Assembly: GCA_030682385.1 (NCBI GenBank) | Contig: JAUXOG010000067.1 | Location: forward strand, 8,790 to 72,789 | Direction: 5' to 3' | Source: Bacteroidota bacterium | Lineage (GTDB): Bacteria; Bacteroidota; Ignavibacteria; UBA10030; BY39 | Length of the DNA stretch: 64,000 nucleotides | Part shown: one piece after another, positions 46,513-62,591 of the stretch | How positions within the stretch are numbered: position 1 is the stretch's first letter | How the letters are laid out: each line of letters starts with the position of its first letter | The notes under the pieces: model-generated | What the model was told of the DNA's origin: nothing | The model's input: the letters and a program-made list of their open reading frames with translations, nothing else | Database searches by the model: none | Translations under genes and position numbers: made by a program

Positions 46513-47802
46513 ATGAACACATCAAAGTCAGATACACTATTCGAAAAAGCAAAACAATTAATCCCCGGCGGTGTGAACTCGCCCGTGCGGGCTTTCAAAT
46601 CTGTAGGCACAAATCCTCTATTCATACAAAAAGCAAAGGGTTCCAAACTATGGGATGCCGATGGAAACGAATTCATCGATTACGTTGGCTCGTGGGGACC
46701 GATGCTGCTTGGGCATTCACATCCAAAAATAATTGAAGCAATTAAGAAAACTGCTGAAAACGGAACAAGCTTCGGCGCCCCAACCGAGCTTGAAGTGATG
46801 ATCGCTGAATTGATTACGAAGATAATGCCTTCAATCGAAATGGTTCGAATGGTAAACTCAGGCACAGAAGCAACAATGAGCGCAATCAGGCTTGCACGCG
46901 CATACACGGGTAAAGATAAGATGATCAAATTTGAAGGATGCTACCACGGACACGGCGATTCGTTTCTAATAAAAGCCGGTTCGGGGGCTATGACTTTCGG
47001 AGTCCCTGACAGTCCCGGTATTCCGAAAGGCATTGCCGATTATACTTTGACTGCGCGCTTCAATGATATCGCTTCGGTTGAGGAATTGATTTCGAAAAAC
47101 AAATCAGAGATTGCCGCGTTAATCGTTGAGCCCGTTGTCGGAAACATGGGATGCATTCCGCCGCGAGAAAATTTTCTGAAACAACTGCGGCAGTTATGCA
47201 CACGGGAAAATATAGTTCTGATTTTCGATGAAGTGATGACCGGGTTTCGCATTTCTCTCGGCGGTGCTCAGGAACTTTACAAAATTAAACCAGACATTAC
47301 CACACTTGGCAAAATTATCGGCGGAGGTTTGCCTGTTGGCGCTTACGGCGGCAAAAAAGAAATAATGCAATTGGTTTCACCAAGCGGACCTATGTATCAA
47401 GCCGGAACGCTATCGGGCAATCCGTTAGCTATGGCGGCGGGGTTTGAAATGCTTTCGATTATTTCACAAGATAAATCTGTTTATAAAATTCTTGAGGAAC
47501 GGTCCGCACAATTAGAAAATGGGATGCGGGAGACTCTGCAAAAATTTAGTTTGAATTACAGGATAAACAGAGTCGGTTCTATGTTCACTTTGTTTTTCAC
47601 TGATAAAGAAGTCTTTGATTATGATAGTGCCAAAACATCGGATACTAAAAAGTTCGCTTTATATTTTAATGAGATGTTGATGCAGGGAATATATTTAGCT
47701 CCGTCGCAGTTTGAAGCTGCATTTGTTTCGGCGGCACATTCTACGGAAGATATTGAAAAGACAAATCGAGCGTTTGCTGAAGCGATTAAAAATATAACGT
47801 AG
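46513..47802 (+). CDS. hemL: Glutamate-1-semialdehyde 2,1-aminomutase
   Basis: Class-III aminotransferase with a PLP-lysine region ([17 protein letters not shown]). 429 aa. Confidence 0.9.
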
Positions 47803-48182
47803 AGACGTTCCATGGAACGTCTCCTGTCTTACGCACTGGGACACCCAAAACCAAGAATTGGAGTTTTATAAGATTAATAATTAACATACCGCTCCTACGG
47901 AGCGGGTAATATATTCTTTGATACATAGCTACAGACATACGAGTCCTACGGACTCGATAAATGGTAGTTATGAAACGACTCCAAAGGAGTCGAATGTCTG
48001 TAGTATTTGAAATATAAAATAATACCGACCCCAGCGGGGTCGAATGTTTGTATGTATTTTCCGTCTTACGCATTGGGACACCCGTATCCAAAAGTAAAAT
48101 GCGGTTTTTGGTAATATTTCTAAAGATTTTTCGTTTTTGTTAAAATTGTGCGGAAGTCAGGAGACGTTCCATGGAACGTCTC
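47802..48182. repeat. Copy 1 of a ~340-bp multi-hairpin intergenic element, bounded by two identical 22-bp palindromes (GAGACGTTCCATGGAACGTCTC)
   Basis: The core 47824-48160 is highly similar to 62190-62540. It contains four CGAnTCC-N3-GGAnTCG-type hairpins (ccgctcctacggagcgg, cgagtcctacggactcg, cgactccaaaggagtcg, cgaccccagcggggtcg). It also has two internal direct copies of CGTCTTACGCAYTGGGACACCC. Confidence 0.8.
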
Positions 48183-48258
48183 TACTGCATTTTTTTCCAA
48201 CACAAAAGCCATCCCGAAAATCGAGATGGCTTTTGTATTTAAATAAAATTTAAACTTA

Positions 48259-49734
48259 CTAATTTCCGACACTGCCATAAAGGAATGCAGTAGCATTTCC
48301 ATTCGAACCGCTTACAGAAATTTTTACCACAACCGGCATAATCTGTGGTGTTCCGGCTGGCGTGGCATCGACCACAGTAAGTGTGAAATCAGTTCTTCCA
48401 GGACCGCGGAAGAGATAATCGTTTAATGGTTCATCGGGTAAGCCGCCAACTTTTGCAGCCCAGTTAGTACCTTCAGGTGGCGAGAATTCGATGGTTGATG
48501 AGATTTGGGTTCCCGGTGCAAGTGGATTTCCGTGTTGGTCGGATATATTTACGCTAAACGTTTGCGACCCACCGCGCGGAACGTTGATTGTATAGGACGG
48601 ACTTACGCTAATGCCTGGAACTCCGGAGAATAGTATTATAACGCTATCTTTAACAATAACGCCATTTTGTCCGATAGTTTGAGCATAAATCCATGCATAG
48701 CCTGGTCCAAATCCGGGGACAGCGTAATTTGGTAATGGATTGCCGCTATAAAGAGTTGCTGTTGTTTGTCCTTTTATATCGGTATAGCGCGCAGCAGTTA
48801 CGATACCACCTGTTGTATTAAAATAAACCGCCGTCCCTTGATGAACAGGATTGCTATATTTATCTCCAACCTGTACAAGGATTTCGTTCGTCCTTCCAAT
48901 CCAATTGTATGCGGCAAAGTTAGATTGTTTAGGACCGATTGAAAAATAATTCTGGTCGGGTAAACCGGCATTTACGACGACACGAGTTGGTGTTGAACGA
49001 ACCCAAACTCCATCACTCTCTCTTCTCAACGAAGCGACTATCTGAAGGACACCTGAAATCGTTCCGCTGTTCACAGTCGTTGCGACCCGCCCCGCTGAAT
49101 TTGTTAACGACCACGAAGGTGAAACATAGGCGCCTCCTGCAACCGGAGGTCCTGCAATAGAAAAGGTTACAGTATCACGCTGCGAAATACTGATTGGAAA
49201 TCCAAGTGAATCTCTAACTTCATATAGTATTATAGCAGTTTCGTTACCCCCAACTCCATAAACTTTTATATCAATTGTTTGTGGACCCATGAAGGCAATT
49301 GTTTGAGGCATACCTGAGCCGGGCGGAATTCCACCACCACCCCCAATTGTTGTTGTTGTATCGAGTGTGATTGTAATCGGAGGAATCGGATATTTCGATC
49401 CAACTTCTACTTCAAATGTGAAGGGGGATTCTTCTTTGTATCCTTCTTTTTTTATATTCATTGTTACATTTAACTGAACCGCAGGCTCAAGTGTAAATTG
49501 AAAGTAATAATTCCCATCTTGATCTGTTGAGTCGATCATCGGAGTCAAACCGCTTGCAGTTAAATTTACTTGTACATCCTTAACCGGTAATATCATATTT
49601 TGCTTTTGCTCTACGACTTTACCGGATATTATCACAAGTGTTTCCTCTTCTACCGGGGCTACCTTGTCCGTACAGCTATAGAGTGTGAATAGAAACAGAG
49701 CCGCAAGCAGACACATCAATATTTTTATTTTCAT
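48259..49734 (-). CDS. Lipoprotein with carboxypeptidase-regulatory-like and Ig-like beta domains, last gene of the pilus cluster
   Basis: Lipobox LFTLYSCTD. ISGKVVEQ beta-sandwich N-domain. Gly/Thr-rich Ig-like repeats. Confidence 0.45.
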   Translation of the reverse strand: MKIKILMCLLAALFLFTLYSCTDKVAPVEEETLVIISGKVVEQKQNMILPVKDVQVNLTASGLTPMIDSTDQDGNYYFQFTLEPAVQLNVTMNIKKEGYKEESPFTFEVEVGSKYPIPPITITLDTTTTIGGGGGIPPGSGMPQTIAFMGPQTIDIKVYGVGGNETAIILYEVRDSLGFPISISQRDTVTFSIAGPPVAGGAYVSPSWSLTNSAGRVATTVNSGTISGVLQIVASLRRESDGVWVRSTPTRVVVNAGLPDQNYFSIGPKQSNFAAYNWIGRTNEILVQVGDKYSNPVHQGTAVYFNTTGGIVTAARYTDIKGQTTATLYSGNPLPNYAVPGFGPGYAWIYAQTIGQNGVIVKDSVIILFSGVPGISVSPSYTINVPRGGSQTFSVNISDQHGNPLAPGTQISSTIEFSPPEGTNWAAKVGGLPDEPLNDYLFRGPGRTDFTLTVVDATPAGTPQIMPVVVKISVSGSNGNATAFLYGSVGN

Positions 49735-49769
49735 AGCTTTTTTCCTAATATATTCTTTTAAAAAATTCT

Positions 49770-51026
49770 TTATTTACTTTTATACCTATCGAGTTCCTTA
49801 TCGAATTTTTGCCGCTGTGTCTCAATCAGGTTTTCCTTTACTTTTCTTGCCATTCTTTCGTGTAAAGTTGGAACGAGTTCGATCTTTAAAAGTATAGTTA
49901 ATTCTTTTTTTGATGTTAAAACTTTGTCGTAGCCGAAAATATATCTCAAGCCAAAAACCCACCACGGCAAATCTTTTAATATCGGAATACCACTTCGTTC
50001 CTTCGAATCAAAGTTTGAATATAAACCACCTATCACAGCTTCTTCGCCATCAATCATCAATAAAACAGTTTTAGCTCTGGTTCTACTGATAGTTGGGGCT
50101 TCGCCGAGGGCGGTGATTACGCTTCTCTCAACTTCGAGGTCTAAATAAACAAATTCATTTTCACCTTCTTTAATTACATACGGAGTAACTTCGATAATCG
50201 TACCAGTAGGAATCTGTTCAATAACAGTATTTCCCGCGAAGTCTTTTTTCTTCACAGAAATATCTTCACCGACCTGTATCTTTCCTTTTTCGCTGGATCG
50301 CACAACTATTTGCGGATTGGATATTACCTCGCCCAAATTATTTTCTGAAAAGAGACGGACTATGGCATCTAAATTTCCAAAGGATAAATCGACACCCTTT
50401 AATGCAAGATTAAAGAGAAGAGTATCGCTCACTTTTTTGGCAGTTTGCTGTTCGATAGTCAGTGATTTAAATTGATCATCGGGTTTGCTTCTAAAAAATT
50501 TCCAATTAATACCCGATTCATGCATTTTGTTTAAATCGACATTGAAGAAGACGGCAGAAATCTTAACTTCGCGGCTGTTCATATTTACCGGTTCTTTTTC
50601 GAATGCCAGCCCGCCTGTCGCTTTGTCGGTTACTGCTTCACCCTTTGCTCCTGTAATCTCAAAATAGTCTTGATATTCTAAATACCATAAATTGTTGATT
50701 TTAAGTATTAATTCCAGTGCGTCCTGCCAGTGCATTGCTTTTATATCGATACCGATTGGTATGGCTCGTTTAGAGGGATCGATAATTAGTTTCCCAAGGT
50801 ATTTTTTACTGACATCACTTAGAGCTGCGATTGCTTTATCGAACGGGGTGGTTTGTGCGATAGAGGCTATCTCGTCCTTGGATACAAATTCTCTTAGGAC
50901 TCGTTTTTCAGTTTGGGAAAAAGCAACTTGTTCAGAAACGAGACTAAAAATTAATAGTAGCGCAAATAAAGTTAATAAGTTTTTTTTTAATGTTTTCATT
51001 TTGTCCTCACTTCTGTTTTTGTCCAT
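49770..51026 (-). CDS. pilQ: Type IV pilus secretin (PilQ/GspD family), short form
   Basis: Secretin C-domain signature VISNPQIVVRSSEKGKIQVGEDI ... GIPILKDLPWWVFGLRYIFG. Signal peptide present. Confidence 0.8.
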   Translation of the reverse strand: MDKNRSEDKMKTLKKNLLTLFALLLIFSLVSEQVAFSQTEKRVLREFVSKDEIASIAQTTPFDKAIAALSDVSKKYLGKLIIDPSKRAIPIGIDIKAMHWQDALELILKINNLWYLEYQDYFEITGAKGEAVTDKATGGLAFEKEPVNMNSREVKISAVFFNVDLNKMHESGINWKFFRSKPDDQFKSLTIEQQTAKKVSDTLLFNLALKGVDLSFGNLDAIVRLFSENNLGEVISNPQIVVRSSEKGKIQVGEDISVKKKDFAGNTVIEQIPTGTIIEVTPYVIKEGENEFVYLDLEVERSVITALGEAPTISRTRAKTVLLMIDGEEAVIGGLYSNFDSKERSGIPILKDLPWWVFGLRYIFGYDKVLTSKKELTILLKIELVPTLHERMARKVKENLIETQRQKFDKELDRYKSK

Positions 51027-51891
51027 AACGAATATTCAATTCAAATTTTTCTATTATACCACCCTTGTTCAACGTACATTCAATACGTCCGAGAACCGGG
51101 TCAACCTTAGTTACATAGCCTAAATAAACCTCATCGCCCTCAGTCAGCGCCCGCATTTTATTACTCTGGTCGATTACAAAAGCTTTGCCGGGCACTACAG
51201 CTTTTAAATCGGAACGCTCAATTTCAACCAGGTCATCAAGGTTGGGGGGCAAATCTCTAAGTATTAATGGTGCAAACGGGTCGGTGGTTAGTGTGGCTGG
51301 AATCAGCTTCTGTTCGCCTGCCGACGAGTAAAGTTCGGGAATCGACGAAAAGTAAGCATCTAAAAGTATTTGGTAAGTAACCAACAACTCGGTTTCTTTA
51401 GTTTCCTTATTTGTAGTTTCTAAACCGCGTAATGCCATCGCATTAATTTTATATAAGAGCCGGTTGTTTTCGAGATACCAGATGAAGCGGAAAAGATTTT
51501 CAAAGGGTGCCTCGCCTTTTAAATTGTAAGTATTAAATCCATAATTTTGTGCGGCATTGGCACCTACGAAAAGCATATCTAATTTTATTTCGCCACTTTT
51601 ACCAATCAACTGATTAATATAATTATATGTTTCGCCGGTAACATTAACCGGTGGGATATCTTTGTTTCTCGATTCCCATCTTTCTTTAGTGCTAACTAAT
51701 TGCTCGCTTAAAGAATTAAATTGATTGACTAAGTCGGGAGTGTTTTGCAGTTCTGCATCTATCGTCTGTATTTGTTTTTGTATAGTTCCAATTTTTTTAG
51801 GCAGATGCGCGCTCCTGAAATAAAAACCGATTGCTAAAATAATCCCTAGAAGAACTCCTAAAACAATTGTATTTCGTAATATATATGACAC
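51007..51891 (-). CDS. PilO-PilP fusion pilus assembly protein
   Basis: N-terminal transmembrane helix plus coiled coil (PilO-like). C-terminal DPFAPL...beta domain typical of PilP. Confidence 0.6.
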   Translation of the reverse strand: MSYILRNTIVLGVLLGIILAIGFYFRSAHLPKKIGTIQKQIQTIDAELQNTPDLVNQFNSLSEQLVSTKERWESRNKDIPPVNVTGETYNYINQLIGKSGEIKLDMLFVGANAAQNYGFNTYNLKGEAPFENLFRFIWYLENNRLLYKINAMALRGLETTNKETKETELLVTYQILLDAYFSSIPELYSSAGEQKLIPATLTTDPFAPLILRDLPPNLDDLVEIERSDLKAVVPGKAFVIDQSNKMRALTEGDEVYLGYVTKVDPVLGRIECTLNKGGIIEKFELNIRYGQKQK

Positions 51892-51908
51892 TTCATCCTC
51901 CTAATCTC

Positions 51909-53522
51909 TTAATGTGGTTTTTCTTCTGATTGTTGGGCCGATCCAGTCTGTTGACTAGACGGCGGTTCGTTTTGCCGAATTTCGATACCTTTGGGAATGC
52001 TAAGTTCATAGTTGTAAACCGTTTTTTCGCGGATCTCTTCTTGAAGTACTTTATTTAAAATTGCGTTTGAATTAAGTTGTGCAATTTTGGGAATTCTTGA
52101 GCGATATATTGCAAAACCGTTAAATACTAAATTTCCTCCTTGGGCACCTTTAAGGTCGGTAATCCAGAGAGAGTTGATATTTTCGATGGAATGCGAGACT
52201 TTCTCGATTAACTGCGACCATTTATCATATCCCGGAACAATTGAATCATAAACTGAAAGTGCAAGACGATAGCGTTCGAGTTGGTCATTGAGACTGCTAA
52301 TTTTAACTTGTAGTCTTTGGTTTTCTTCTAATTGTGCTTGCTTTTGTACAAGAATTTCTTTTTGGGAATGTAGTTCGGAATTGAGCATCGATATTTGATA
52401 AGTGAAATAAAAAGTACTGAAAAATATAAGACTGAGAAGTAGATACCCGTGCCAGCCTAATTTAAAAGCACGTTGTTCTTCGCGGATAAACTCGGGAAGT
52501 AGATTGATTGGATAGAACGCAGGATTATTTTCGTCTAAAATTTTCCATGCGGTTGCTATTGCCACTGCATATTCGGGTATAAGTTCTTGCGTTTCGGGGG
52601 AAAGAAAACTTGTATCAAGATAAGGTGTTTGCAAATACTGGATATCGACTTCGGGTAATTGGTCTTTTAGAAACTCGTCGAAAGTACTGCGGCGGCTTTC
52701 GCCCGCTAATAATATCCGGTCGATGCGTGGAATTCCTAAATTATCTTGTTCCAATAAGAGGCGGCTATAAACAGTATTTTGAATATTTATTGAATCGTAG
52801 CCTTCGCCTAATACCGGGGCGAAATGGAAGAACTCAGACCCTTTCATAAAAATCAAACGGGTAAACTCGGTGCCTACGTAAACGATAGCGCTGATTTCAT
52901 CAGGAGCGAAGCCGTAGTTAGCACGTGCTAAGTTCATTAGTGCAATATCTGATGTTTCTATTAGGGGAATTCTGGGAGTGCGGTTGTTGAGGAAGGGTTT
53001 AATGTCTTCAATTGTTCGGTACAAACTAATTCCGTCTTCGCGAACGGCGCAAACCAAGTTTCTATCGGATGAATAGAAAACATCAACCGCATCTTGTGCG
53101 GGTTGAACAGAACGAACTTTTTTTAACTCTTCTATGATTCTCTCTTTAAGCTTTGTCCCTTTCAGCCCAAAATCGCTCTCGATCGTATGATAGTAAACGC
53201 TTGGTTCAGAGATAGCATATCCAAGTAAGTACGACGTTGGTTTATATTCAGATAAGAGACCAATCAAAACACTGTTGTTGTCTTCACTGCTTTCAGGGCG
53301 ATCTGCCCCGGTTGGTATCGAGAATGTATCGGTTGTGGTTTCAGCGAAACCATCTGACAAATCTTTGAGCTGCCGTTCTTCTAATTTGTTTACGAGCGAG
53401 GCAACTTTTAGCTCATCAATAACAACACTTTTACCCTTCTTCGATAATTTAGCAAATTTAATTTCAAGGCCATCAACAAAAAGACCGACGGCACTTTTTT
53501 TATTACCTCTCATGGTCGCCAT
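51909..53522 (-). CDS. PilM-PilN fusion pilus assembly protein
   Basis: N-terminal actin-like PilM ATPase-fold region. C-terminal transmembrane helix (GYLLLSLIFFSTFYFTY) plus a coiled coil, as in PilN. Confidence 0.65.
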   Translation of the reverse strand: MATMRGNKKSAVGLFVDGLEIKFAKLSKKGKSVVIDELKVASLVNKLEERQLKDLSDGFAETTTDTFSIPTGADRPESSEDNNSVLIGLLSEYKPTSYLLGYAISEPSVYYHTIESDFGLKGTKLKERIIEELKKVRSVQPAQDAVDVFYSSDRNLVCAVREDGISLYRTIEDIKPFLNNRTPRIPLIETSDIALMNLARANYGFAPDEISAIVYVGTEFTRLIFMKGSEFFHFAPVLGEGYDSINIQNTVYSRLLLEQDNLGIPRIDRILLAGESRRSTFDEFLKDQLPEVDIQYLQTPYLDTSFLSPETQELIPEYAVAIATAWKILDENNPAFYPINLLPEFIREEQRAFKLGWHGYLLLSLIFFSTFYFTYQISMLNSELHSQKEILVQKQAQLEENQRLQVKISSLNDQLERYRLALSVYDSIVPGYDKWSQLIEKVSHSIENINSLWITDLKGAQGGNLVFNGFAIYRSRIPKIAQLNSNAILNKVLQEEIREKTVYNYELSIPKGIEIRQNEPPSSQQTGSAQQSEEKPH

Positions 53523-53590
53523 TATATATAGAACCTTTCATAAACTTATAAACAATTTAATAAATTGTTTTATCAAAAAAAAATACGAAA

Positions 53591-54814
53591 TCAATGTGTT
53601 ACTAAATTTAAAATTTGCTGGAGCCGACGCTTGTTATTTGCATAACTCATAGCATTTTCGAGTGAAATTCTCTTTGTTAAATATAAGCGCTTTAAATCCT
53701 GTTCTAAGGTAGTCATTCCTTCGTCGCCAGATTCAGACATCATCTGGTATATCTCGCTGGTATTATTATTTTTGATTGCTGCTTTTACAGAAGGATTAGC
53801 AACCATAATTTCCTTGGCTAATACTACTTTTCCATCTAAACTTGGAATAAGTTTTTGCGATATTACTAATTTAACAACATCTGCCAAACGATTACGTACA
53901 CGTTCCTGCTCGTATGGTGGAACTTCCCCGATAATTCTATCGATACTTTCAACCGCAGATGATGTGTGAAGGGTTGAAAATACTTTATGACCGCTGTCGG
54001 TTATTTCGAGGGCTGTCATAATTGTATCCGGATCGCGCATCTCACCTATCACTATAATATCAGGGTCTTGCCGGAGCGATTGGATAGCTCCTTCTTTAAA
54101 AGAAAGTACATCACGCCCAATTTCCCGATGCCGGATTATACATCTATCCGACTTATGCACATATTCGATCGGCGAAGCAATTATTACAACATGTCCATCT
54201 ACAGAATGATTGTTCGCGTCGATGATTGTATCTAATGTAGAACTTTTTCCTGAACCAGTAATACCCGTTACGAGTATCAAACCTTCCATCGTATGAGCGA
54301 GATTGAGTATTTTAGAAACATTCGAGTGAAAGTCTAATAATTTATACGGACGCACGATGGCATTTATAACACGCATATTCAATGCTAACTGGTCGAGGTC
54401 GAAGTAAGTATCGGCACGAAAACGGTACATCAGATCGTTTTTAAAAATAGTATATGAAAAATCTAAATTACGATTTTCGTAAAGAAATTGTCTTTGGCGT
54501 TCGAGCAAAATAGTAAGAATGATAATGTTGATTTCATCGAAAGTATATGAACCGGACGCGGTATCCGGTTTTTTATCGCCATAAATACGATACCAAATTC
54601 TCCCTTGCGATCCGAAGCCACCGATATCGATATCGGAGGCATGGTTTTCTTCCATCCGAATTAAAAAACTATCGAATAATTTTTTAATGATAGTACGTTC
54701 TTCAGGACCCTGGCGATTTACGAGGTCGCCGATAATCATCATTCTCTCGACACCATAAGCGGTATCGGGAATACTTGCTGTAATATGTTTTAATATTAAT
54801 TTCGCTTCTTCCAT
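53591..54814 (-). CDS. pilT: Twitching-motility retraction ATPase (PilT/PilU family) with an N-terminal extension
   Basis: Walker A GITGSGKSSTLD. Asp box, Walker B and His box (HTSSAVESIDRI) are conserved. 407 aa. Confidence 0.8.
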   Translation of the reverse strand: MEEAKLILKHITASIPDTAYGVERMMIIGDLVNRQGPEERTIIKKLFDSFLIRMEENHASDIDIGGFGSQGRIWYRIYGDKKPDTASGSYTFDEINIIILTILLERQRQFLYENRNLDFSYTIFKNDLMYRFRADTYFDLDQLALNMRVINAIVRPYKLLDFHSNVSKILNLAHTMEGLILVTGITGSGKSSTLDTIIDANNHSVDGHVVIIASPIEYVHKSDRCIIRHREIGRDVLSFKEGAIQSLRQDPDIIVIGEMRDPDTIMTALEITDSGHKVFSTLHTSSAVESIDRIIGEVPPYEQERVRNRLADVVKLVISQKLIPSLDGKVVLAKEIMVANPSVKAAIKNNNTSEIYQMMSESGDEGMTTLEQDLKRLYLTKRISLENAMSYANNKRRLQQILNLVTH

Positions 54815-54889
54815 TAATACAGAACTTTAATTATATCCTGATAAAACATTGAAAAATATAGTTTAATATATGAAAATTATTTACACTTG

Positions 54890-56305
54890 TCAATATTCAG
54901 GAATTCTAACATTTTCCCACCAATTAGCAATAGAGTAAGTTGACCGGTAAAAACCCGGAAAGAATGGCGGTCTTACACTTGTATTGCTAAGTCTTTCGTC
55001 ATAATAATACCTTTTCGAAAAACCATTTTTTAGTGTTGAACCGGCAAATTGCCCCACAGCTCCCCGTGTATTTTGTATGAGTCCACCGACTATTTTTAAC
55101 CAACCACTTACCGGACGTGAATTCCAGTCCTCAGCTGTAAATGAACCAGCCCGCGAAAAAATACTTGCATGAATTTCGCAATTAGTGTTATTTGCAGTGT
55201 TGTTAGATACGATAACACTTCCCTCAGAAACTAATCCTAACATATCGTCGCTTGTAATAATTGTTTGGGGATTCCGTTCATAAGTAACATCGTCAATTAC
55301 ATACATGTTATTTAACGATCCGATTGAGAGACGACCATCTAATTTACCCTTCACATATACTATCTGATTACCTAATATAACTCCGTTGAATCCTGCAGCA
55401 TTAAGTATGACAGAATCTACAATGGGACCTGCGGCGGAATTTCGTATATATGCTTTTCCGTCGTTATTGTCGGAGGTTCCGGCATTTAATTCTACCCAAA
55501 TATCATTTGTATATCTTTTGCCACCGGATGTTGAAGCGGCTATGAGTTCGTTCAGATCAGTTGGATATTGAATGGGTGCGACACCGGTCTCGTATCCTTT
55601 TTTAAAAATCGCATTACTTTGTCCGCTCCCGGGTTTCGGATTGAAAGCTTTTGCAGTTGTTACCTTTTCGATGAAAACCGGGCTGCCGCTTATATGTAAA
55701 TTACCGTTGGAGTGAACGCGGCCCCAAACCGTATCGCCGGTTATCCAGAAAACATTTCCCTCAAAATTGGTCATCCAGGCATACATCGAGAAGCTTTGGG
55801 CTAACTGCTTTGAAAAGAAAACTTCTACCGTATCGTGATAAGTTTTGGGAGGAATTCCCCGGGTGCTTGTAAATGTAGAAACTGTACGCAGTCGAAGATT
55901 TGTCATGCTTAAACTATCAACCCTCGCGGTAAATGAACCCCCTTTAAGGTTGCCCGAAGTAAAAGTTTGCGTTGTAATGACCCCTCGTAACCCTGGGTTC
56001 TGATATAATTTGCTGATGGAAGCATTTGCACCCATCACTGCAAGGTTGTGTGATTGTGAAACATCATAATAATATGCCATATTATCGATAGAATTAGATT
56101 CGAGCCAATTTAAGCGAGTACCAACTATTCCGAAAATGACTCCGAAACCTAACACAAGTATTATTGCGCCTTTGCCGAACATAATGTTTTCTCCTTTATC
56201 GTTTAAAATTTTGTGATGCGAGTCGAGTTTGCCGCCAGTAAGAACTTGAGAATAAAGCATTTTGTTCGCCCGGACGAACATCTCGTGGATCACGATATAA
56301 TGCAT
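54890..56305 (-). CDS. Hypothetical membrane-anchored pilus-associated protein
   Basis: Internal Met followed by a hydrophobic helix (MFGKGAIILVLGFGVIFGIV). No family recognised. Assignment is by position in the pilus cluster. The N-terminus may be shorter than the track ORF. Confidence 0.35.
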   Translation of the reverse strand: MHYIVIHEMFVRANKMLYSQVLTGGKLDSHHKILNDKGENIMFGKGAIILVLGFGVIFGIVGTRLNWLESNSIDNMAYYYDVSQSHNLAVMGANASISKLYQNPGLRGVITTQTFTSGNLKGGSFTARVDSLSMTNLRLRTVSTFTSTRGIPPKTYHDTVEVFFSKQLAQSFSMYAWMTNFEGNVFWITGDTVWGRVHSNGNLHISGSPVFIEKVTTAKAFNPKPGSGQSNAIFKKGYETGVAPIQYPTDLNELIAASTSGGKRYTNDIWVELNAGTSDNNDGKAYIRNSAAGPIVDSVILNAAGFNGVILGNQIVYVKGKLDGRLSIGSLNNMYVIDDVTYERNPQTIITSDDMLGLVSEGSVIVSNNTANNTNCEIHASIFSRAGSFTAEDWNSRPVSGWLKIVGGLIQNTRGAVGQFAGSTLKNGFSKRYYYDERLSNTSVRPPFFPGFYRSTYSIANWWENVRIPEY

Positions 56306-56813
56306 ACGAATTTTGAACTTCTAACGTAATCTCGACTATTTTAATCATTGCTAAATCAATTGAAGCAATCGGTGGTATGAGTGTATCCAATTGCCCTTGG
56401 CTATAATATCGCAGCCTAAAATCGGTTACAATTCCGATACTTTGGATTGCGCCCCCATTTACACGTCTGTGTAAAAAACGATCCCTCTCATTTTGAGTGT
56501 GAGCAAGTCCACTCACATGACCTAACCAATACTCGACTCTGTCGGGGGTACCGCTTCGATTCAAATCGGATAAAAAGGTGATCGCCGTGTCGCGCGCGTG
56601 AATAACGGTAGCTGAATCCTCATTTACACCGACACCCATATTCCGGAACTCCCCCTCAACAATTTGGACTATTGATATCAGCATTTGCTGAACAAGCACA
56701 TCGCCATTTATCAGTGTTGAATTTTCGCCTACAACATTGTTTGCATTAATTATACTCAGTAGCAATACGCCTCCGATTATTGTTGCTATTATTATATCAA
56801 GAAAAGTTGCCAT
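56196..56813 (-). CDS. Minor-pilin-like protein (N-terminal hydrophobic helix)
   Basis: MATFLDIIIATIIGGVLLLSII resembles a prepilin N-terminus, with an acidic residue at +4 or +5. 205 aa. Confidence 0.45.
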   Translation of the reverse strand: MATFLDIIIATIIGGVLLLSIINANNVVGENSTLINGDVLVQQMLISIVQIVEGEFRNMGVGVNEDSATVIHARDTAITFLSDLNRSGTPDRVEYWLGHVSGLAHTQNERDRFLHRRVNGGAIQSIGIVTDFRLRYYSQGQLDTLIPPIASIDLAMIKIVEITLEVQNSYALYRDPRDVRPGEQNALFSSSYWRQTRLASQNFKR

Positions 56814-56830
56814 ATCTTCCTCATTTTTTT

Positions 56831-57367
56831 TTAGTCAAAGTGAAAATATCCCATAACTATAGATGTTTTTAACGTATCGGTACTTAATGGTTGGATACGA
56901 CTGATATTTATATCAAGCCGCTTTACGAAAGTTCTGGATGTTACCTTTTGATTAATATTATCAGGGTTCACGTAATAGACTTGAAATGAAGTTTTGTATG
57001 TTCCAATAATTCCGGGATTTGAATTTTCAATTATCGAATAATTGTGCAAATCATCAATATCGTCAAACGTGGGAAAGCTTGTTTCGGGTTCTTCGTCTAT
57101 AGGAGGCGGGTTTTCAGGTCCCAATGAAGTGGGATTTTTTAAAAGACCCATGGATGCTGTTGTGATATTAGAATCTATTGTAGCTTCATCAAAATTTAAT
57201 CCGTTTGCAAGCTCCATATATGTAGTGGCAAGTGTCAGTTGGTTTATACCTAATTGAGAACTGTCGATTGTGTCTCCACTTCGTGCTAATAGCTGATAAA
57301 AAGAGACTATTAGGGTCGAGAAGAGTACAAAAGCTCCAATCGTTAGCAGAGTTTGGTTAGATGACAT
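56831..57367 (-). CDS. Minor-pilin-like protein
   Basis: MSSNQTLLTIGAFVLFSTLIVSFYQLL N-terminal hydrophobic helix. 178 aa. Confidence 0.4.
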   Translation of the reverse strand: MSSNQTLLTIGAFVLFSTLIVSFYQLLARSGDTIDSSQLGINQLTLATTYMELANGLNFDEATIDSNITTASMGLLKNPTSLGPENPPPIDEEPETSFPTFDDIDDLHNYSIIENSNPGIIGTYKTSFQVYYVNPDNINQKVTSRTFVKRLDINISRIQPLSTDTLKTSIVMGYFHFD

Positions 57368-57738
57368 ATTACCAGTCTCCTCTATTGTTATTTATTTTAG
57401 TAACATTAAAATATTCACTCAACATATTTTTGTTTAACATTGTAGCGCCATTGCGCTGATAATCGAAATCGTTTGTCGTATATCCATAAAAGTTTCTTTT
57501 TATTATGCTAATTACTTACAAATTACATTTGCATCAAGTCACTTTCTGTCTTCTCAGTCGCAAAAATCCGGTTGCAAAGTGAGAAGTATCACCATTAAAG
57601 GAACAATGGATATGCCAGGCAGGTATTATAAATTGTGGGGGTATAAAGATATAAGTTTTAGAAGGATAGTGAATGTAAAATGTGAAGAAAGAAAGGTAAA
57701 AATTACCTTCAACCCTTGTAATATCTACAATAATGACA

Positions 57739-59538
57739 CTAATCTTCAGTTGTTGTGGCAAGTATCTCCTCGAATGTTGTTACACCTTCCATCATCCTTT
57801 CCATACCGGCTCTACGTAACGACCACACACCATCTTTGGCGGCTTGTTCGCGAATTGCATTTTCATCTATATCGTTTCCTGCACTTACTATCAGTTGTTT
57901 AATTTCGCGTGTGAAATATAGAGCTTCGTGAATTGCACATCGTCCTTTCCAGCCCTGATTACATTTTTCGCAGCCGATTGGCTCGTAAAAAGTGCTGTTG
58001 TCCAACATCTCGTCTGTAAATCCAAACTTAATATAGATTTCTCTTTCTTTTTCATTTAAAGGCATCGGCTTTTTGCAGTTTTTGCACAAGGTTCGTATAA
58101 GTCGTTGAGCAACTACTATATTTATGGCATAAGCGATAAGGAACGGTTCCACACCCATCTTAAATAAACGTGATATTGCACTTGGCGCATCGTTAGTATG
58201 GAGTGTAGAAAAAGTTAAGTGACCTGTGTTTGCAAGTTTAATTGCAATTTCTGCTGTAGTTTTATCACGCATTTCTCCCACAAGAACTATATCAGGATCG
58301 TGCCGTAAAATACCTCGCATGGCACTGTCAAAATCCATCTTGGGACCAATCTTTAATTGTCTGGCTCCTCTAATAATGTACTCAACGGGATCTTCTACGG
58401 TTAGTACGTTTACAGTGGGATCGATAACCTGATGTAAGGCTGCTATTAGAGTTGTACTTTTTCCGCTTCCTGTAGGACCGGTTAATATCACGATTCCCTG
58501 TGGTTTTGAAATTGCTTTGTAGAAACAATCGCGTGCAGGTCCTTGTAAACCGAGTTTGTTCAAATCTGTAATTACTTTTCGATCATCGAGAACACGAATT
58601 ACAATGCTTTCTAATTTGTGGCTGAACTCGGTGGCTACTATAGGCATAATTGAAACGCGGAAACGCATTTGATGACCATCGATAACACGCTGGATAAAAC
58701 CATCCTGCGTCATTTCACGCTCGAAGCGGTCGATATTTTTCGACCTGTCCTTTACTACTGCGGCAATCGCTTCGGGCATTGTGTTCTCCTGTGTATGCCA
58801 AAGTTTTAAGTTACCATCTAATCGAAAGAGGAAATCGGTGCGGTTTCCTTCTCTCGCTATAATATGTATATCGCTTGCACCCTGGCGAACTGCTTCAACT
58901 AAAGCTCCTTCGACTAAATTTATTAGGGCGCTTTTACTGATTTCAGCTTCGAGGGCTTCTTCGTCAACGCCTTCTTCTTCTTTTACATTAATACCGATAT
59001 CCGATGTTTCAAGGAGTTTTAAAAATTCATTTTCAGGCGGGAATATTTTCTCTAATAAGTTTGTAATTTCTTTAAAGCGACAGTAGCAAACTTCGTATTT
59101 TTTAACACCGAAATTCCGTGCTATAACCGGGATTCGTTTATCGGTAGGATCGGCTGCTATGATTATCAGTTTCTCAGAAACTTTATCGTCGAACTTCAAG
59201 GGTATAATTTTGGTCTCTATCAACATCGAACGATAAGTATCTGGCAGACCTTCGACCGTTTTTTTTATGAAGGCGATGCGGGGTAGATCGAGAACCTCGT
59301 CGGCGAGATAGATTTCACGAAAGGCGTATAAATTGGCTACTTCACGAAATACAGCATCGTGATCGATTTGAAAATCTGATACAAGAATTTGACCCAAATT
59401 ACGGCGTTTTTTCTTATCCTCTGTATCTTTTATACGAAGCGAATGTTCTAATACTTCATAATCGATAATACCCTTCTTTAGAAGAGTATATCCTATTTTA
59501 TCAGTAATGTCGATTTCGGGCATATTTAAGTAAACCAA
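57739..59538 (-). CDS. pilB: Type IV pilus assembly ATPase (PilB/GspE family)
   Basis: N-terminal GSPII_E_N-like domain. Walker A LTGPTGSGKSTTL. A CxxC...CxxC zinc-binding tetracysteine (CKNCKK...CEKCNQGW). Confidence 0.9.
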   Translation of the reverse strand: MVYLNMPEIDITDKIGYTLLKKGIIDYEVLEHSLRIKDTEDKKKRRNLGQILVSDFQIDHDAVFREVANLYAFREIYLADEVLDLPRIAFIKKTVEGLPDTYRSMLIETKIIPLKFDDKVSEKLIIIAADPTDKRIPVIARNFGVKKYEVCYCRFKEITNLLEKIFPPENEFLKLLETSDIGINVKEEEGVDEEALEAEISKSALINLVEGALVEAVRQGASDIHIIAREGNRTDFLFRLDGNLKLWHTQENTMPEAIAAVVKDRSKNIDRFEREMTQDGFIQRVIDGHQMRFRVSIMPIVATEFSHKLESIVIRVLDDRKVITDLNKLGLQGPARDCFYKAISKPQGIVILTGPTGSGKSTTLIAALHQVIDPTVNVLTVEDPVEYIIRGARQLKIGPKMDFDSAMRGILRHDPDIVLVGEMRDKTTAEIAIKLANTGHLTFSTLHTNDAPSAISRLFKMGVEPFLIAYAINIVVAQRLIRTLCKNCKKPMPLNEKEREIYIKFGFTDEMLDNSTFYEPIGCEKCNQGWKGRCAIHEALYFTREIKQLIVSAGNDIDENAIREQAAKDGVWSLRRAGMERMMEGVTTFEEILATTTED

Positions 59539-60905
59539 CTAATTATATTTTGTAGTTCGATGAAGCCCATACCGGGGCGTTTCGGTTTTATAAATGCTGT
59601 CTCGGATGATACAAGTGTCAATCCTGTAAGCACTATCATAATAATCATTGTTATCCAGAGCTGTATAAAATCGATAGCATTTCGCATTTTATAACTGGTT
59701 TCTTTTTCATAGTATTCAGCCAATTGGTGAGCTGTGTGTTTGACAGTTCCAGTTTCTGCACCGCTATGAAAACGCGAGATTGCAGTCTTAGTAAATACAC
59801 CCGACGCTTCAAAAGCTTCTGTTATGCCTGCCCCTTTTTCGACCATCATCGGAATAGCGATGGTTTTTATTTGGGCTTCCATATATCTGTTTCCGCAAGC
59901 TTCGGCTGCCATTCTAATGACATCGATATTTTCGCCCGAACCGCTATAGAGTGCATGAAACACACGGCAGAATATTTCGATACTTGTTTTATGTAACAGC
60001 GACCCGATTGCCGGAATTTTCCAGATAAACTTGTCCAATATGTACTTTCCTCGAGGTGTTGTAAAAAATCGTATCGCAAGAATAATAGGGACTAATGTTG
60101 CAATCAAAATGACGACTATGTTATCGAGTATGAAATAGCTCAACTGGAGTGTTGCATTGGTCATTGGTGGCAGATCTATTTTCATTTTTGCAAATATCTC
60201 AGCCATCGGTTTAAATATCCATCCGATGTAATAAATTACAGCGGCGAAAAGGGCAGCCAATGTAACTAATGGCATAATGAGTGCACTTTTTAAATCTTTT
60301 TTAAACTGTGCCTGACGTTCAAGAAATTTTGCAGTACTTTCATAAATCTCAGCCATATTACCGCTTTTAGAAGCAAGCCCTAACATGTGTGCAGTAAATT
60401 TTCCGAAAACTGCTTCTTGTTTTACAAAAACTTTTTCGCTGTCTCTTCCCTGCTTCAGCTCCGTGTTTATTTCGCGTATCGTGTCCCTGAGTGTTTTATT
60501 CTCGATATCGTTTGTCATTAATTGCAGAATTTCGTTGTAAGGTAACTTTTGTCGTATCAAATCGGCACTAACCCGGACAAATGTTACAATATCAGCCATA
60601 GGTGGTTTAGGTCTTATATCGAATAGCTTTTTCCGGACATATAAAACACGAAAGCCCATTTTCGATAGGGCTTCCTGAACCTCTTCTTTTGTAAAGGCTT
60701 TTTGTTCACCGGTAGCAGGTTTTTCGTTACCCTTTTGTACTTTGTAAATAAAAGTACCCCGTATAGTCAACTTTAGAACTTTAAACTTCCTCTGCACAGC
60801 CATCTGGTTAGCTTTTTCCTTTGCGAGCCTGGGGCTGTCGGCTTCAAGAATACCTTGTACTGTTTTTCCGTTTGTTGATATTCCTTCTAATCGAAATTCT
60901 GGCAT
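59526..60905 (-). CDS. pilC: Type IV pilus inner-membrane platform protein (PilC/GspF family)
   Basis: Two T2SSF-type repeats. MPEFRLEGISTNGKTVQGILEA N-terminus is typical of PilC. Overlaps pilB by 13 nt. Confidence 0.85.
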   Translation of the reverse strand: MPEFRLEGISTNGKTVQGILEADSPRLAKEKANQMAVQRKFKVLKLTIRGTFIYKVQKGNEKPATGEQKAFTKEEVQEALSKMGFRVLYVRKKLFDIRPKPPMADIVTFVRVSADLIRQKLPYNEILQLMTNDIENKTLRDTIREINTELKQGRDSEKVFVKQEAVFGKFTAHMLGLASKSGNMAEIYESTAKFLERQAQFKKDLKSALIMPLVTLAALFAAVIYYIGWIFKPMAEIFAKMKIDLPPMTNATLQLSYFILDNIVVILIATLVPIILAIRFFTTPRGKYILDKFIWKIPAIGSLLHKTSIEIFCRVFHALYSGSGENIDVIRMAAEACGNRYMEAQIKTIAIPMMVEKGAGITEAFEASGVFTKTAISRFHSGAETGTVKHTAHQLAEYYEKETSYKMRNAIDFIQLWITMIIMIVLTGLTLVSSETAFIKPKRPGMGFIELQNIISWFT

Positions 60906-60957
60906 TTTTTTTATCCTCTATAAATTATAACCAATAATATAAAATTTTAGTATCACT

Positions 60958-61338
60958 TTATTGGAAATCACCGTTGAACGTATAAGGTCCAAATTTACCA
61001 TCGGCATCCAATTCAACCACGATTGTCCCATATCCAAATTTTGAAGTCGCTGTAAATTCTACAGAATTAGGAGATTCCAGATAAGTATATGTTGCATTCT
61101 CGTTATCTGCAAGATTAGCTGGTATATTTAAATTAAGATACGACCTGCTGCCGCCGCCTAAAGGTTCGGGTTTTAAACGATATCTATACGCATACTGCCC
61201 AAGATTCATCATATCGTTTATGATTGCATCCTTATTTGAGCTAACAGAGGTAGCCGTAAACAAATAAATTCCCACTACAATTGCGATTCCGACAATGATC
61301 ACACCAAGTATGAGCAGCATTAGTTGTTGTTGACCCAT
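60958..61338 (-). CDS. Atypical pilin-like protein (paralogue 1)
   Basis: 126 aa. MGQQQLMLLILGVIIVGIAIVVGI N-terminal helix with no canonical GFTLIE. Paralogous to 61454-61834. Lies directly upstream of pilC-pilB. Confidence 0.5.
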   Translation of the reverse strand: MGQQQLMLLILGVIIVGIAIVVGIYLFTATSVSSNKDAIINDMMNLGQYAYRYRLKPEPLGGGSRSYLNLNIPANLADNENATYTYLESPNSVEFTATSKFGYGTIVVELDADGKFGPYTFNGDFQ

Positions 61339-61357
61339 ATAGCGACCTTTCTGTTAT

Positions 61358-61420
61358 TCGCGTCATAAAATAAAACGCTGCCAAATATAAGAATTGTTAG
61401 TAAAAATTTCATTTGGCAGC
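61358..61420 (-). terminator. Intrinsic terminator between the two pilin paralogues (minus strand)
   Basis: GCTGCCAAAT ... ATTTGGCAGC 10-bp stem. On the minus strand it is followed by gttttattttatg. Confidence 0.65.
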
Positions 61421-61453
61421 GCATTGAACTTAAAAGTTTCCGTTGATACAAAA

Positions 61454-61834
61454 TTATTTGAATTGACCCTCGTATGCCCAATCAGTTAATTTACCTTCTG
61501 GGCCGAGTATGGCTACTACTGTTCCATAATCTAAGTGTGTTGCTGTAATTGTAACTTCATCTGCTTCGCCCACGACAGCTACATATGTAGCATTTTCGGT
61601 AGTTACTAATTTTGTTGGAATGGTATAACCGGTATAGGCACCAGCGCCACCGCCCATCGAGGCAGGACGGATACGATATTGATATGCATTTGCAGCAAGG
61701 TTGTTCATGTCGTTAATAATAGCATCTTTGGCGGATTGAACACTGCCCGCTGAAAACATTGTTATACCGACAGCGATAGCGATACCAACTATGATAACGC
61801 CCAAAATGATTAATAAAAGTTGTTGTTGACCCAT
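61454..61834 (-). CDS. Atypical pilin-like protein (paralogue 2, probably the major subunit)
   Basis: 126 aa. MGQQQLLLIILGVIIVGIAIAVGI. Own promoter candidate upstream and a terminator downstream. Confidence 0.5.
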   Translation of the reverse strand: MGQQQLLLIILGVIIVGIAIAVGITMFSAGSVQSAKDAIINDMNNLAANAYQYRIRPASMGGGAGAYTGYTIPTKLVTTENATYVAVVGEADEVTITATHLDYGTVVAILGPEGKLTDWAYEGQFK

Positions 61835-61929: not shown

Positions 61930-61945
61930 TACAACCCACGTGCCA
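61930..61945 (-). promoter_or_regulatory. Sigma-54-type promoter candidate upstream of the pilin gene
   Basis: The minus strand reads TGGCAC-GTGGG-TTGTA (consensus TGGCAC-N5-TTGCW). It lies about 85 nt upstream of the 61834 ATG. An NtrC-type activator is encoded at 4850-6217. Confidence 0.35.
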
Positions 61946-62126: not shown

Positions 62127-62591
62127 CTCTGCTGGTTGCTGAGCTGTTAAACTGAGCTTGTCGAAGTTTTATCGAAGCTGGTTGCTCCCGTCTTACACAT
62201 AGGGCACCCAAAACCAAGAATTGGAGTTTTATAAGATTAAAAATTAACATTAGTTACAGACATACGAGTCGCCTTTGGCGACCTACGGACTCGATAAATG
62301 GTAGTTATGAAACGACTCCAAAGGAGTCGAATGTCTGTAGTACTTGAAATATAAAATAATACCGACCCCAGCGGCCTGCCCGCCGTCCCTCTTTTCGGGA
62401 CTTTGGTAGGCGGGGGGGCGAATGTTTGTATGTATTTTCCGTCTTACGCACTGGAACACCCGTATCCAAAAATAAAATGCGGTTTTTTGTAATATTTCTA
62501 AAGAATTTTCGTTTTTGTTAAAATTGTGCGGAAATCAGGTCTTTATTCTTATCTCTGCTGGTTGCTGAGCTGTAAACTGAGCTTGTCGAAG
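62127..62591. repeat. Copy 2 of the ~340-bp multi-hairpin element, bounded by 39-40-bp direct repeats (CTCTGCTGGTTGCTGAGCTGT(T)AAACTGAGCTTGTCGAAG)
   Basis: The core 62190-62540 aligns to 47824-48160 with two module swaps. One hairpin module is replaced by attagtta. The cgaccccagcggggtcg hairpin is expanded to a GC-rich hairpin containing GCCTGCCCGCC...GGTAGGCGGGGGGG. Confidence 0.8.

Follow-up and report, generated by a model that had tools for sequence, protein, structure and literature searches.

Type IVa pilus systems such as those of P. aeruginosa, M. xanthus and T. thermophilus have PilB, PilT, PilC, PilM, PilN, PilO and a secretin, all of which recur, as judged from homology or fold prediction, in the locus described here together with a set of minor pilin-like genes and a sigma-54-type pilin promoter; in Pseudomonas and Myxococcus, pilA has such a promoter. 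Canonical PilQ comprises roughly 700 amino acids, and GspL of type II secretion systems (T2SS) is a single polypeptide with a PilM-like cytoplasmic domain, a transmembrane (TM) segment and a PilN-like periplasmic domain. In archaeal type IV pilins and archaellins, especially the EppA-dependent ones with Gln at position +1, the hydrophobic helix starts with Gly-Gln and a conserved Glu5 is lacking, much as in the pilins of the present study; pyroglutamate formation from an N-terminal Gln is known for EppA-dependent pilins. For the type IV filament superfamily as a whole, a class III signal peptide with its own A24 peptidase counts as a defining and ancestral feature (PMC6668835). The T4aP-derived "T2SS" of Cytophaga hutchinsonii, a member of the FCB lineage like the carrier of our locus, reportedly branches with T4aP and has a very divergent major pilin (Denise et al. 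2019, PMC6668835).

The locus encodes, in our reading, a type IVa-like retractile pilus of Ignavibacteria (Bacteroidota in GTDB) whose subunits represent a new, "born-mature" class of pilins that have neither a leader nor Glu5 and are probably independent of PilD. We assign this reading a probability of about 0.55, and a genome-wide absence of PilD is not established.

Organisation of the locus

The ORF list of the window (the whole analysed stretch of 64,000 nucleotides) contains twelve ORFs at positions 48259-61834, all on the minus strand, in the order two pilins, PilC, PilB, orf5-7, PilT, a PilM-PilN fusion, a PilO fusion, a short secretin and a lipoprotein (Table 1). This is the single-orientation pil cluster of the initial annotation, with each of the twelve ORFs where it had been placed; the cluster is not "complete", as had been stated there, because a prepilin peptidase is missing from it.

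Table 1 Features of the pilus locus. Coordinates refer to the window.
Feature	Coordinates	Strand	Evidence and remarks
Sigma-54-type promoter	61931..61945	-	TGGCAC-N5-TTGT, 97-111 nt upstream of pilin A start; read in sequence
Pilin A, 126 aa	61454..61834	-	Likely major subunit; N-terminus MGQQQLLLIILGVIIVGIAIAVG
Hairpin between pilin genes	61375..61422	-	13-bp stem, then UUUUAU; terminator/attenuator-like; -19.2 kcal/mol, z = -3.35
Pilin B, 126 aa	60958..61338	-	Paralogue, 52% identical to pilin A
PilC/GspF-type inner-membrane platform protein	59526..60905	-	Pfam T2SSF 3e-25
PilB extension ATPase	57739..59538	-	Pfam T2SSE 1e-100; TIGR02538 type IV-A PilB 1.6e-125
orf5, minor-pilin-like, 178 aa	56831..57367	-	N-terminus MSSNQTLLTIGA; family consensus MNTGQMLLVIGA; invariant FDDxDDY motif
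orf6, minor-pilin-like, 205 aa	56196..56813	-	N-terminus MATFLDIIIATIIGG
orf7, large pilin-like, 430 aa	54890..56182	-	From M42 of longest ORF; N-terminus MFGKGAIILVLGFG; DUF4900 region
PilT retraction ATPase	53591..54814	-	TIGR01420 PilT/PilU 3.9e-91; T2SSE 4e-34
PilM-PilN fusion, 537 aa	51909..53522	-	Actin-like PilM domain ~aa 10-330; TM and coiled coil 344-428; ferredoxin-like PilN domain 432-509
PilO with small C-terminal beta domain (PilP/DotF-like), 294 aa	51007..51891	-	Profile match to PilO 3jc8, E=0.002, positions 14-164
Short secretin, 418 aa	49770..51026	-	PF00263 4e-28 at aa 227-384
Lipoprotein	48259..49734	-	Big_1/invasin-D3 Ig-like domain match; ...LYSC lipobox by eye

PilB, PilT and PilC meet the test for a type IVa motor and platform. 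All three remain below the NCBIfam equivalog cut-offs (PilB 419.9 bits against 675 for TIGR02538, PilT 305.8 bits against 319.1 for TIGR01420, PilC matching GspF at 1e-39 and the Thermus-type PilC at 2e-37) and are therefore divergent members. In contrast to the type IVa systems, the accessory proteins of the locus all fall under the Pfam/NCBIfam thresholds, PilM-PilN and PilO-(PilP-like) are single polypeptides, and the secretin is much shorter than canonical PilQ. A pairwise fusion of the platform proteins had been inferred at first sight; it is supported for PilM-PilN, which has the fused architecture of GspL, and for the PilO part of the second protein (~294 aa in all loci), whereas the PilP part rests only on a weak match of the C-terminus to IcmG/DotF (7e-5 in one search, E=1 in another). 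The Akkermansia Amuc_1098-1102 cluster likewise has a long PilM-like protein beside a secretin, and the TM/coiled-coil part of our fusion weakly matches NF045709 (Amuc_1101 PilM-like; 4e-7, far under the cut-off); this is not a family-level match, and the subunit proteins differ. The outer-membrane secretin test was met via PF00263, a check that did not extend to N-terminal domains including AMIN, and homologues in related loci have 404-438 aa. The Big_1 lipoprotein is an accessory gene that lies downstream of the secretin in only ~3 other loci.

The 126-residue pilins

Both pilins, described from the outset as tandem paralogues, open with MGQQQL(L/M)L. The sequence and an in-frame TAA 5-6 codons 5' of each ATG agree with this start, and because of these stops a longer leader is impossible. 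The test for a class III leader was not met, as the ORFs begin with M-G-Q-Q-Q, which leads directly into the invariant hydrophobic alpha1-N helix without a preceding Lys or Arg. Nor was the test for Phe/Met+1 and Glu+5, and Pfam N_methyl (PF07963) and TIGR02532 had no match to the pilins at E<=0.1. A profile of the family aligned weakly with the helix of Geobacter PilA (E=0.029), with Q4 on F1, L8 on E5 and G17 on canonical G14, which puts the start of the ORF only ~3 residues upstream of canonical Phe1. The silence of both models and the position of Leu8 on Glu5 bear out the annotated lack of a Gly-Phe site and of Glu+5, features in which these pilins differ from those of type IVa systems.

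AF2 predicts one continuous helix from residue 3 to 55, as in pilins, with a hydrophobic N-terminal half of the long alpha1 that is packed on a four-stranded antiparallel sheet. The fold test is met, and the structure prediction that had been suggested as a check thus establishes the pilin fold of these proteins. Counting against our reading, a Foldseek comparison with the PDB gave no significant match.

Three features make pilin A the probable major subunit: a strong Shine-Dalgarno sequence (AAGGAG precedes this first pilin gene), the sigma-54-type promoter and the hairpin 3' of the gene. The promoter motif TGGCA[CT]N5TTG[CT] is located 63-161 nt upstream of 21 of the 119 pilin genes across the loci, where by our own calculation ~0.5 would be expected. 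The hairpin was missed by a consensus scan because its loop comprises 22 nt.

Conservation and synteny of the pilin family

The MGQQQ pilin family comprises more than 3,500 sequences in 2,154 clusters at 50% identity, and neither Pfam nor NCBIfam has a model for it; more than 2,000 such clusters are thus added as a family without a model. Its first 23 residues are nearly invariant. For comparison we used the best 80 genome loci, up to 20 kb each and all of Ignavibacteria, Melioribacteraceae or Kryptoniota type. MGQQQLLL is present in 102 of ~120 pilin ORFs across these loci, and every MGQQQ ORF encodes 95-157 aa. The order pilin(s)-PilC-PilB-[orf5-7]-PilT-PilMN-PilOP-secretin is conserved in ~50 of the 80 loci and in the complete genome of Melioribacter roseus P3M-2 (CP003557.1). 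The pilin genes thereby meet the test for linkage to a PilB/PilC-type machine, being located directly upstream of PilC-PilB; this linkage is genetic only, and assembly is inferred. A distinct filament subunit class using the T4P machinery, one of two alternatives in the initial annotation, is favoured by the large family, its position outside existing pilin models and this synteny with PilC/PilB/PilT.

Outside pilins, the head domain is found in tandem arrays secreted via Sec, in lipoproteins and in polytopic-membrane fusions that lack T4P neighbours. This distribution counts against our reading, as does a conservation of the head domain that is unusually high for an exposed major pilin.

Minor pilin-like proteins

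The start of orf7 is most likely M42 (56182 of the window) and not 56305. With the N-terminus given in Table 1, orf7 becomes the third protein with a pilin-like start, rather than the "membrane protein" it had been taken for. DUF4900 matches five of seven members of the orf7 family (best E 2.8e-6), the orf7 of the window being under the gathering score. In the orf6 family M1 and D6 are invariant, and D6 is the sole Glu5-like conserved acidic residue of the pilin set; the N-terminus has a weak, non-significant similarity (E=1.5) to the Thermus pilin TTHA1219. No match to orf5 was obtained in Pfam, NCBIfam or PDB sequences.

Search for a prepilin peptidase

As annotated, no PilD gene was detected in the window: the A24 motif GxGD[FVIALM]K is absent from all six frames, and only three ORFs of >=120 aa have >=3 hydrophobic segments, namely PilC, a 286-aa ORF that no Pfam model matches and a shadow ORF on the strand opposite the secretin/PilOP genes; none of them is a polytopic A24-like protein. 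The type IVa systems differ from our operon, which has no PilD in or near it. In the 80 loci the motif occurred only once, by chance, within an ORF of locus L029 that does not encode a membrane protein. A canonical G-FTLIE prepilin, whose existence would have spoken against the 126-residue proteins as substrates of the machinery, was likewise found neither in the window nor in the related loci. Since these scans covered 1.26 Mb (window plus loci) and not whole genomes, a PilD elsewhere in the genome remains possible. Genes for prepilin peptidases often lie away from the systems they serve, or one peptidase is shared between systems (PMC6668835). The authors of the complete M. roseus genome found neither pilA nor pilD (PMC3534657). 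For one Ignavibacteriales MAG, a Geobacter-like pilin recognised by PilFind has been reported (PMC7399161), so a canonical pilin and peptidase may exist in at least some members of the class.

These observations leave room for true class III substrates with an extremely short leader, cleaved after Gly (MG|QQQ, MNTG|Q, MFGKG|A) by an A24 peptidase encoded elsewhere, whose new N-terminal Gln may form pyroglutamate. We consider this possible but unlikely. Gly2 is invariant and followed by Gln, the orf5 consensus MNTG-Q and MFGK[GA] of orf7 look like short class III leaders, and both the frequency of unlinked peptidase genes and the PilFind-positive MAG are compatible with it. However, the A24 motif is missing from window and loci alike, pilD was not found in M. 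roseus, and a two-residue uncharged leader had no precedent in the literature searched, nor do we know of any substrate that has one. Moreover, the minor pilins have leaders of 1-5 residues, and orf5 and orf6 do not conserve a Gly ahead of the helix (MSSN-Q in the orf5 of the window, MSNLQ and MNQM in others); this variation speaks against a peptidase site with strict Gly(-1). Note that M-G|Q, MNTG|Q and MFGKG|A are all consistent with cleavage after Gly, and that Gly or Ser at position 2 suits removal by Met-aminopeptidase and the -1 residue of A24 peptidases alike.

Mechanistic model

For the born-mature pilins we assume that the proteins enter the inner membrane as N-in signal anchors and that at most the initiator Met would be removed, residue 2 being Gly or Ser, so that an A24 prepilin peptidase would not be needed. 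PilB and PilC would then pull the pilins from the membrane and assemble a filament that extends through the secretin, PilT would retract it, and orf5-7 would presumably act as priming or tip minor pilins. The neutral Gln-rich N-terminus may stand in for the salt bridge between Glu5 and the N-terminal amine in the filament core. PilD-independence, filament formation and the role of Gln are inferences. Whether Ignavibacteria lack an A24 prepilin peptidase altogether, their leaderless pilins starting with Gly-Gln-Gln-Gln after Met removal and polymerising without a salt bridge between Glu5 and the N-terminus, could in our view go either way. Experimental evidence for a filament from MGQQQ pilins is nil.

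It is improbable, but must be considered, that the locus encodes a T2SS-like secretion device or another non-pilus machine, in which the MGQQQ proteins form a short periplasmic pseudopilus or serve as membrane-anchored carriers of an extracytoplasmic binding domain. The highly conserved head domain in many non-pilin architectures would fit such a role, as would the slightly higher score of PilC against GspF than against PilC, the reported branching of the Cytophaga "T2SS" within T4aP, with a divergent major pilin (PMC6668835), and the type II pathway described for M. roseus (PMC3534657). Against it, PilT is kept inside the operon in all complete loci, the top score of PilB is type IV-A PilB, and the cytoplasmic domain of the PilM-PilN fusion is nearest to PilM. 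The test for T2SS membership (GspC, GspL, GspM, pseudopilins GspG-K, no retraction ATPase) was not met, no protein matching GspC/L/M at E<=0.1 in Pfam/NCBIfam. The multiple pilin copies per genome also speak for a pilus, and the sigma-54 promoter, the strong ribosome binding site and the hairpin 3' of the gene point to one subunit that is expressed at a very high level.

An ordinary Sec signal peptide, cut by signal peptidase I (e.g. after SAGS/SAQS, near residue 31) to free a soluble periplasmic protein, can claim a small-x-small motif (A-G/Q-S) after the hydrophobic stretch and the same head domain behind genuine Sec signal peptides, but this cleavage, the other annotated alternative, is very improbable because the hydrophobic N-terminus is essentially invariant (residues 1-23, over thousands of sequences, unlike signal peptides), and a hydrophobic stretch of ~22 residues without basic n-region, the continuous predicted helix and the tight synteny with PilC and PilB argue against it as well.

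Implications

If the born-mature reading is correct, the pilins are a bacterial exception to the rule of class III signal peptide and A24 peptidase, for which we found no report of an exempt bacterial type IV filament. Leader, Gly-Phe junction, Glu5 and PilD would then not be mechanistic necessities for type IV filaments, as the lineage concerned is widespread and no pilD has been recognised in its sequenced type strain. The locus would be a natural system in which the contributions of leader cleavage, N-methylation and Glu5 to membrane extraction and filament packing can be studied. The family would moreover be a new class of pilins, missed by the tested Pfam/NCBIfam pilin models and probably by PilFind- or MacSyFinder-style searches. 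This suggests that surveys based on motifs or profiles find too few type IV pili in the Ignavibacteria lineage of Bacteroidota. The "missing pilA" of M. roseus is explained by MROS_0599 and its neighbour. Other cultured carriers of the family are Melioribacter sp. OK-6-Me, Rosettibacter firmus and Stygiobacter electus.

Identification of the pilus cluster

The cluster most plausibly encodes a retractile pilus of the type IVa kind, built from a new class of pilins that have neither a leader nor Glu5 and that probably bypass prepilin peptidase; we assign this reading a probability of roughly 0.55. No earlier description of such a class was found in the searchable literature. The proposal of the initial annotation, unusual pilins served by type IV pilus machinery, is supported, and the minus-strand cluster of twelve ORFs is arranged exactly as described there (Table). 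It is flanked by the housekeeping genes hemL and pyruvate kinase, and ends with the gene of a lipoprotein that carries an Ig-like Big_1 domain. Standard models name four components, PilC (Pfam T2SSF, 3e-25), PilB (Pfam T2SSE, 1e-100; NCBIfam TIGR02538, 1.6e-125), PilT (NCBIfam TIGR01420, 3.9e-91) and a secretin of 418 aa (PF00263, 4e-28), all of which are divergent members of their families since every NCBIfam score falls below the equivalog cut-off. Pfam and NCBIfam scans gave nothing usable for the pilins, orf5, orf6, PilMN and PilOP, and an Rfam scan of the window returned no match.

Coordinates of the features discussed (window positions unless an accession or locus is named)
Feature	Position	Strand
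Tandem 8-nt array	656-772	
First minus-strand gene	749-1375	minus
Sigma-54 activator response regulator	4850-6217	minus
Hybrid histidine kinase	6234-7346	minus
IS4-type DDE transposase	31822-33150	
BRO-N domain protein	35110-35952	
Spurious 101-aa ORF	47786-48091	
MITE-like element, left copy	47788-48196	
Pilus cluster	48259-61834	minus
orf7, most likely start	56182	minus
orf5	56831-57367	minus
Pilin B	60958-61338	minus
Pilin A	61454-61834	minus
Sigma-54-type element TGGCAC-N5-TTGT	61931-61945	
MITE-like element, right copy	about 62185-62539	
M. roseus P3M-2 pilus operon	CP003557.1, 671,269-691,655	
M. roseus type-strain secretin gene (CP003557.1)	L085:17333-18576	
Secretin gene of near-identical metagenome contig	L084:17331-18575	

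The 537-aa PilMN is without a Pfam match. With Myxococcus xanthus PilN its family profile gives a match over positions 335-478 (E=2e-6). In the AlphaFold model, built using homologues taken from a protein search (pLDDT 76), a helix of 85 residues stands between an actin-like and a ferredoxin-like domain. The protein is therefore a genuine PilM-PilN fusion, as had been suspected. GspL of the type II secretion system has an analogous architecture. Of the second postulated fusion, PilOP (294 aa), only the PilO part could be substantiated (positions 14-164, E=0.002); the putative PilP part remains plausible but unproven, because the C-terminal ≈90 residues show merely a weak match of the IcmG/DotF type (7e-5, and E=1 in a second search). 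Both fusions keep their length in every related locus. Separate scans of 21-22 homologues of each yielded no more than a single weak match to PilN and a single weak match to PilO.

Start site and fold of the pilins

Both 126-aa pilin ORFs start with ATG-GGT-CAA-CAA-CAA, with an in-frame TAA 5-6 codons before either start codon, and a Shine-Dalgarno sequence (AAGGAG) precedes the first gene, which makes a hidden longer leader impossible. A mis-called start codon was rejected on the same grounds and because over 100 independent loci show the identical N-terminus. The family comprises more than 3,585 proteins in a 90%-clustered database, none of them with a Pfam domain, and 2,154 clusters at 50% identity (E<=1e-3). 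Across 20 aligned members, residues 1-23 (MGQQQLLLIILGVIIVGIAIAVG) vary little or not at all, the exact start MGQQQLLL is present in 102 of ≈120 pilin ORFs from 80 genome loci, and even divergent members conform to M-[G/S]-x-x-Q-[L/F]-L.

The AlphaFold model of the pilin (pLDDT 84) features a helix of residues 3-55 against four strands; a Foldseek search with this model yielded no significant match. Only the helix of Geobacter PilA provides a sequence-level link to a known pilin: it is matched weakly by the profile (E=0.029), with G17 of the family corresponding to the canonical G14, L8 to Glu5 and Q4 to Phe1. In this register the translated pilin therefore starts about three residues ahead of the canonical start generated by PilD, and it has no acidic residue at the Glu5 position.

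In the further pilin-like genes orf5, orf6 and orf7 the hydrophobic helix likewise begins after just 1-5 residues. The orf5 family has the consensus start MNTGQMLLVIGA, in which the Gly before Gln is not constant (MSSNQ in the window copy), and its alignment contains an invariant FDDxDDY motif (D103, D105, D106), a suspected metal-binding site, possibly for Ca2+. M1 and D6 are invariant in orf6, D6 being the only Glu5-like acid among the pilin-like proteins of the cluster. For orf7 the most likely start is M42 of the longest ORF (MFGKGAIILVLGFG); five of seven family members match DUF4900. Profile searches of the PDB with orf5 and orf6 were uninformative.

Prepilin processing and alternative roles

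The A24 peptidase motif GxGD[FVIALM]K, searched in six frames across the window and the 80 loci (1.26 Mb), gave one chance match only, in a non-membrane ORF. Apart from PilC, the only polytopic membrane ORFs of the window are a shadow ORF and one of 286 aa that matches no Pfam domain, so that the reported absence of a PilD gene from the window is confirmed. The initial annotation had also allowed for a canonical major pilin elsewhere; no ORF of the window and the 80 loci, which do not cover whole genomes, has the canonical prepilin start leader-G-[FILMVYW]xxxE. Independence of PilD is thus our favoured inference. It is not demonstrated, because whole genomes were not scanned, peptidase genes are frequently unlinked from their systems (PMC6668835) and a PilFind-positive Geobacter-like pilin ('e-pilin') has been reported for one Ignavibacteriales MAG (PMC7399161). 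That an A24 peptidase encoded elsewhere cleaves the pilins after Gly2 persists as a tentative alternative. Literature searches on leaderless type IV pilins or prepilin peptidase in Ignavibacteria retrieved nothing relevant, and the paper on the I. album genome is silent on pili.

That the 126-aa proteins form a pseudopilus or have a non-filament role is unlikely, although two features of the head domain (residues ≈30-126) keep this rival to a long filament alive. Firstly, the domain is not confined to proteins with the MGQQQ helix. It is repeated two to five times in tandem after Sec signal peptides (protein P0241) and is part of lipoproteins, of proteins 1,410-2,288 aa long, and of fusions with polytopic membrane domains whose neighbours are not type IV pilus genes (protein P0280, locus L082). 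Secondly, its alpha-beta loop motif (YQYRIRPxSMGGGxGxYxGY) is conserved to a degree unusual for an exposed pilin. This suggests an autonomous function of the head, perhaps in binding. Examples lacking the helix are P0241, P0242, P0245, P0269, P0279, P0326, P0277, P0280 and L082:8001-8537; P0280 is surrounded by TM2/RDD proteins. Processing of the pilins by cleavage of a Sec signal peptide is hardly credible.

Distribution in other genomes

Scanning one genome per species gave 489 confirmed loci, the best 80 of which were analysed. Nearly all of these 80 belong to Ignavibacteria, Ignavibacteriales, Melioribacteraceae, Kryptoniota or unclassified 'Bacteroidota' MAGs, frequently with several loci in one genome. 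The order pilin (1-4 copies)-PilC-PilB-PilT-PilMN-PilOP-secretin is found in ≈50 of them, with the orf5-7 module between PilB and PilT or else upstream on the opposite strand; the others are orphan pilin copies or are truncated by contig ends. Many genomes contain several dispersed orphan MGQQQ genes distant from assembly genes (L001-L080; for example L016, L035, L038, L039 and L070 of DATIXJ01, and L026, L048 and L055 of CAVQPS01), some preceded by a sigma-54-type promoter.

Melioribacter roseus P3M-2 likewise has the operon in its complete genome; of the two pilins encoded there, MROS_0599 is annotated as 'hypothetical protein'. The authors of this genome reported that they found neither pilA nor pilD (PMC3534657); the MGQQQ family is evidently the missing pilA of this organism. 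The type-strain secretin gene is split by a frameshift into pieces of 74 and 338 aa, and is intact (414 aa) in a near-identical metagenome contig. A pseudogene of the laboratory strain or an error in sequencing could account for the split, which bears on the choice of strain for piliation experiments.

Expression signals and surroundings

A sigma-54-type element precedes pilin A, and the motif recurs ahead of 21 of 119 pilin genes, at a distance of 63-161 nt (≈0.5 genes expected by our own calculation). Between pilin A and pilin B lies a hairpin whose 13-bp stem is accompanied by a U-run (z = -3.35). The sigma-54 activator (Response_reg, Sigma54_activat, HTH_8) and the adjoining kinase are candidates for PilR/PilS-like control of the pilin A promoter, though 55 kb distant. 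Promoter motif, hairpin and regulator are consistent with strong expression of a major pilin gene and read-through from it into the assembly genes.

A MITE-like element of ≈340-400 nt flanks the 14-kb cluster in direct orientation. Its two copies share blocks of 94-99% identity separated by indels, and the left copy, within which the spurious ORF falls, has 71-nt terminal inverted repeats. A mobile island, which these repeats had brought to mind, was rejected as an explanation of the cluster, since the gene order of the operon is kept throughout the class and the element was not found in the 80 related loci. The transposase (DDE_Tnp_1_4, 1e-51) and the BRO-N protein suggest mobile or phage-derived DNA in mid-window. 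Near the window start, an 8-nt motif (CTCCACTA or a variant of it) is repeated ≈14 times in tandem; the array overlaps the first minus-strand gene at its 3' end and runs on into its downstream sequence.
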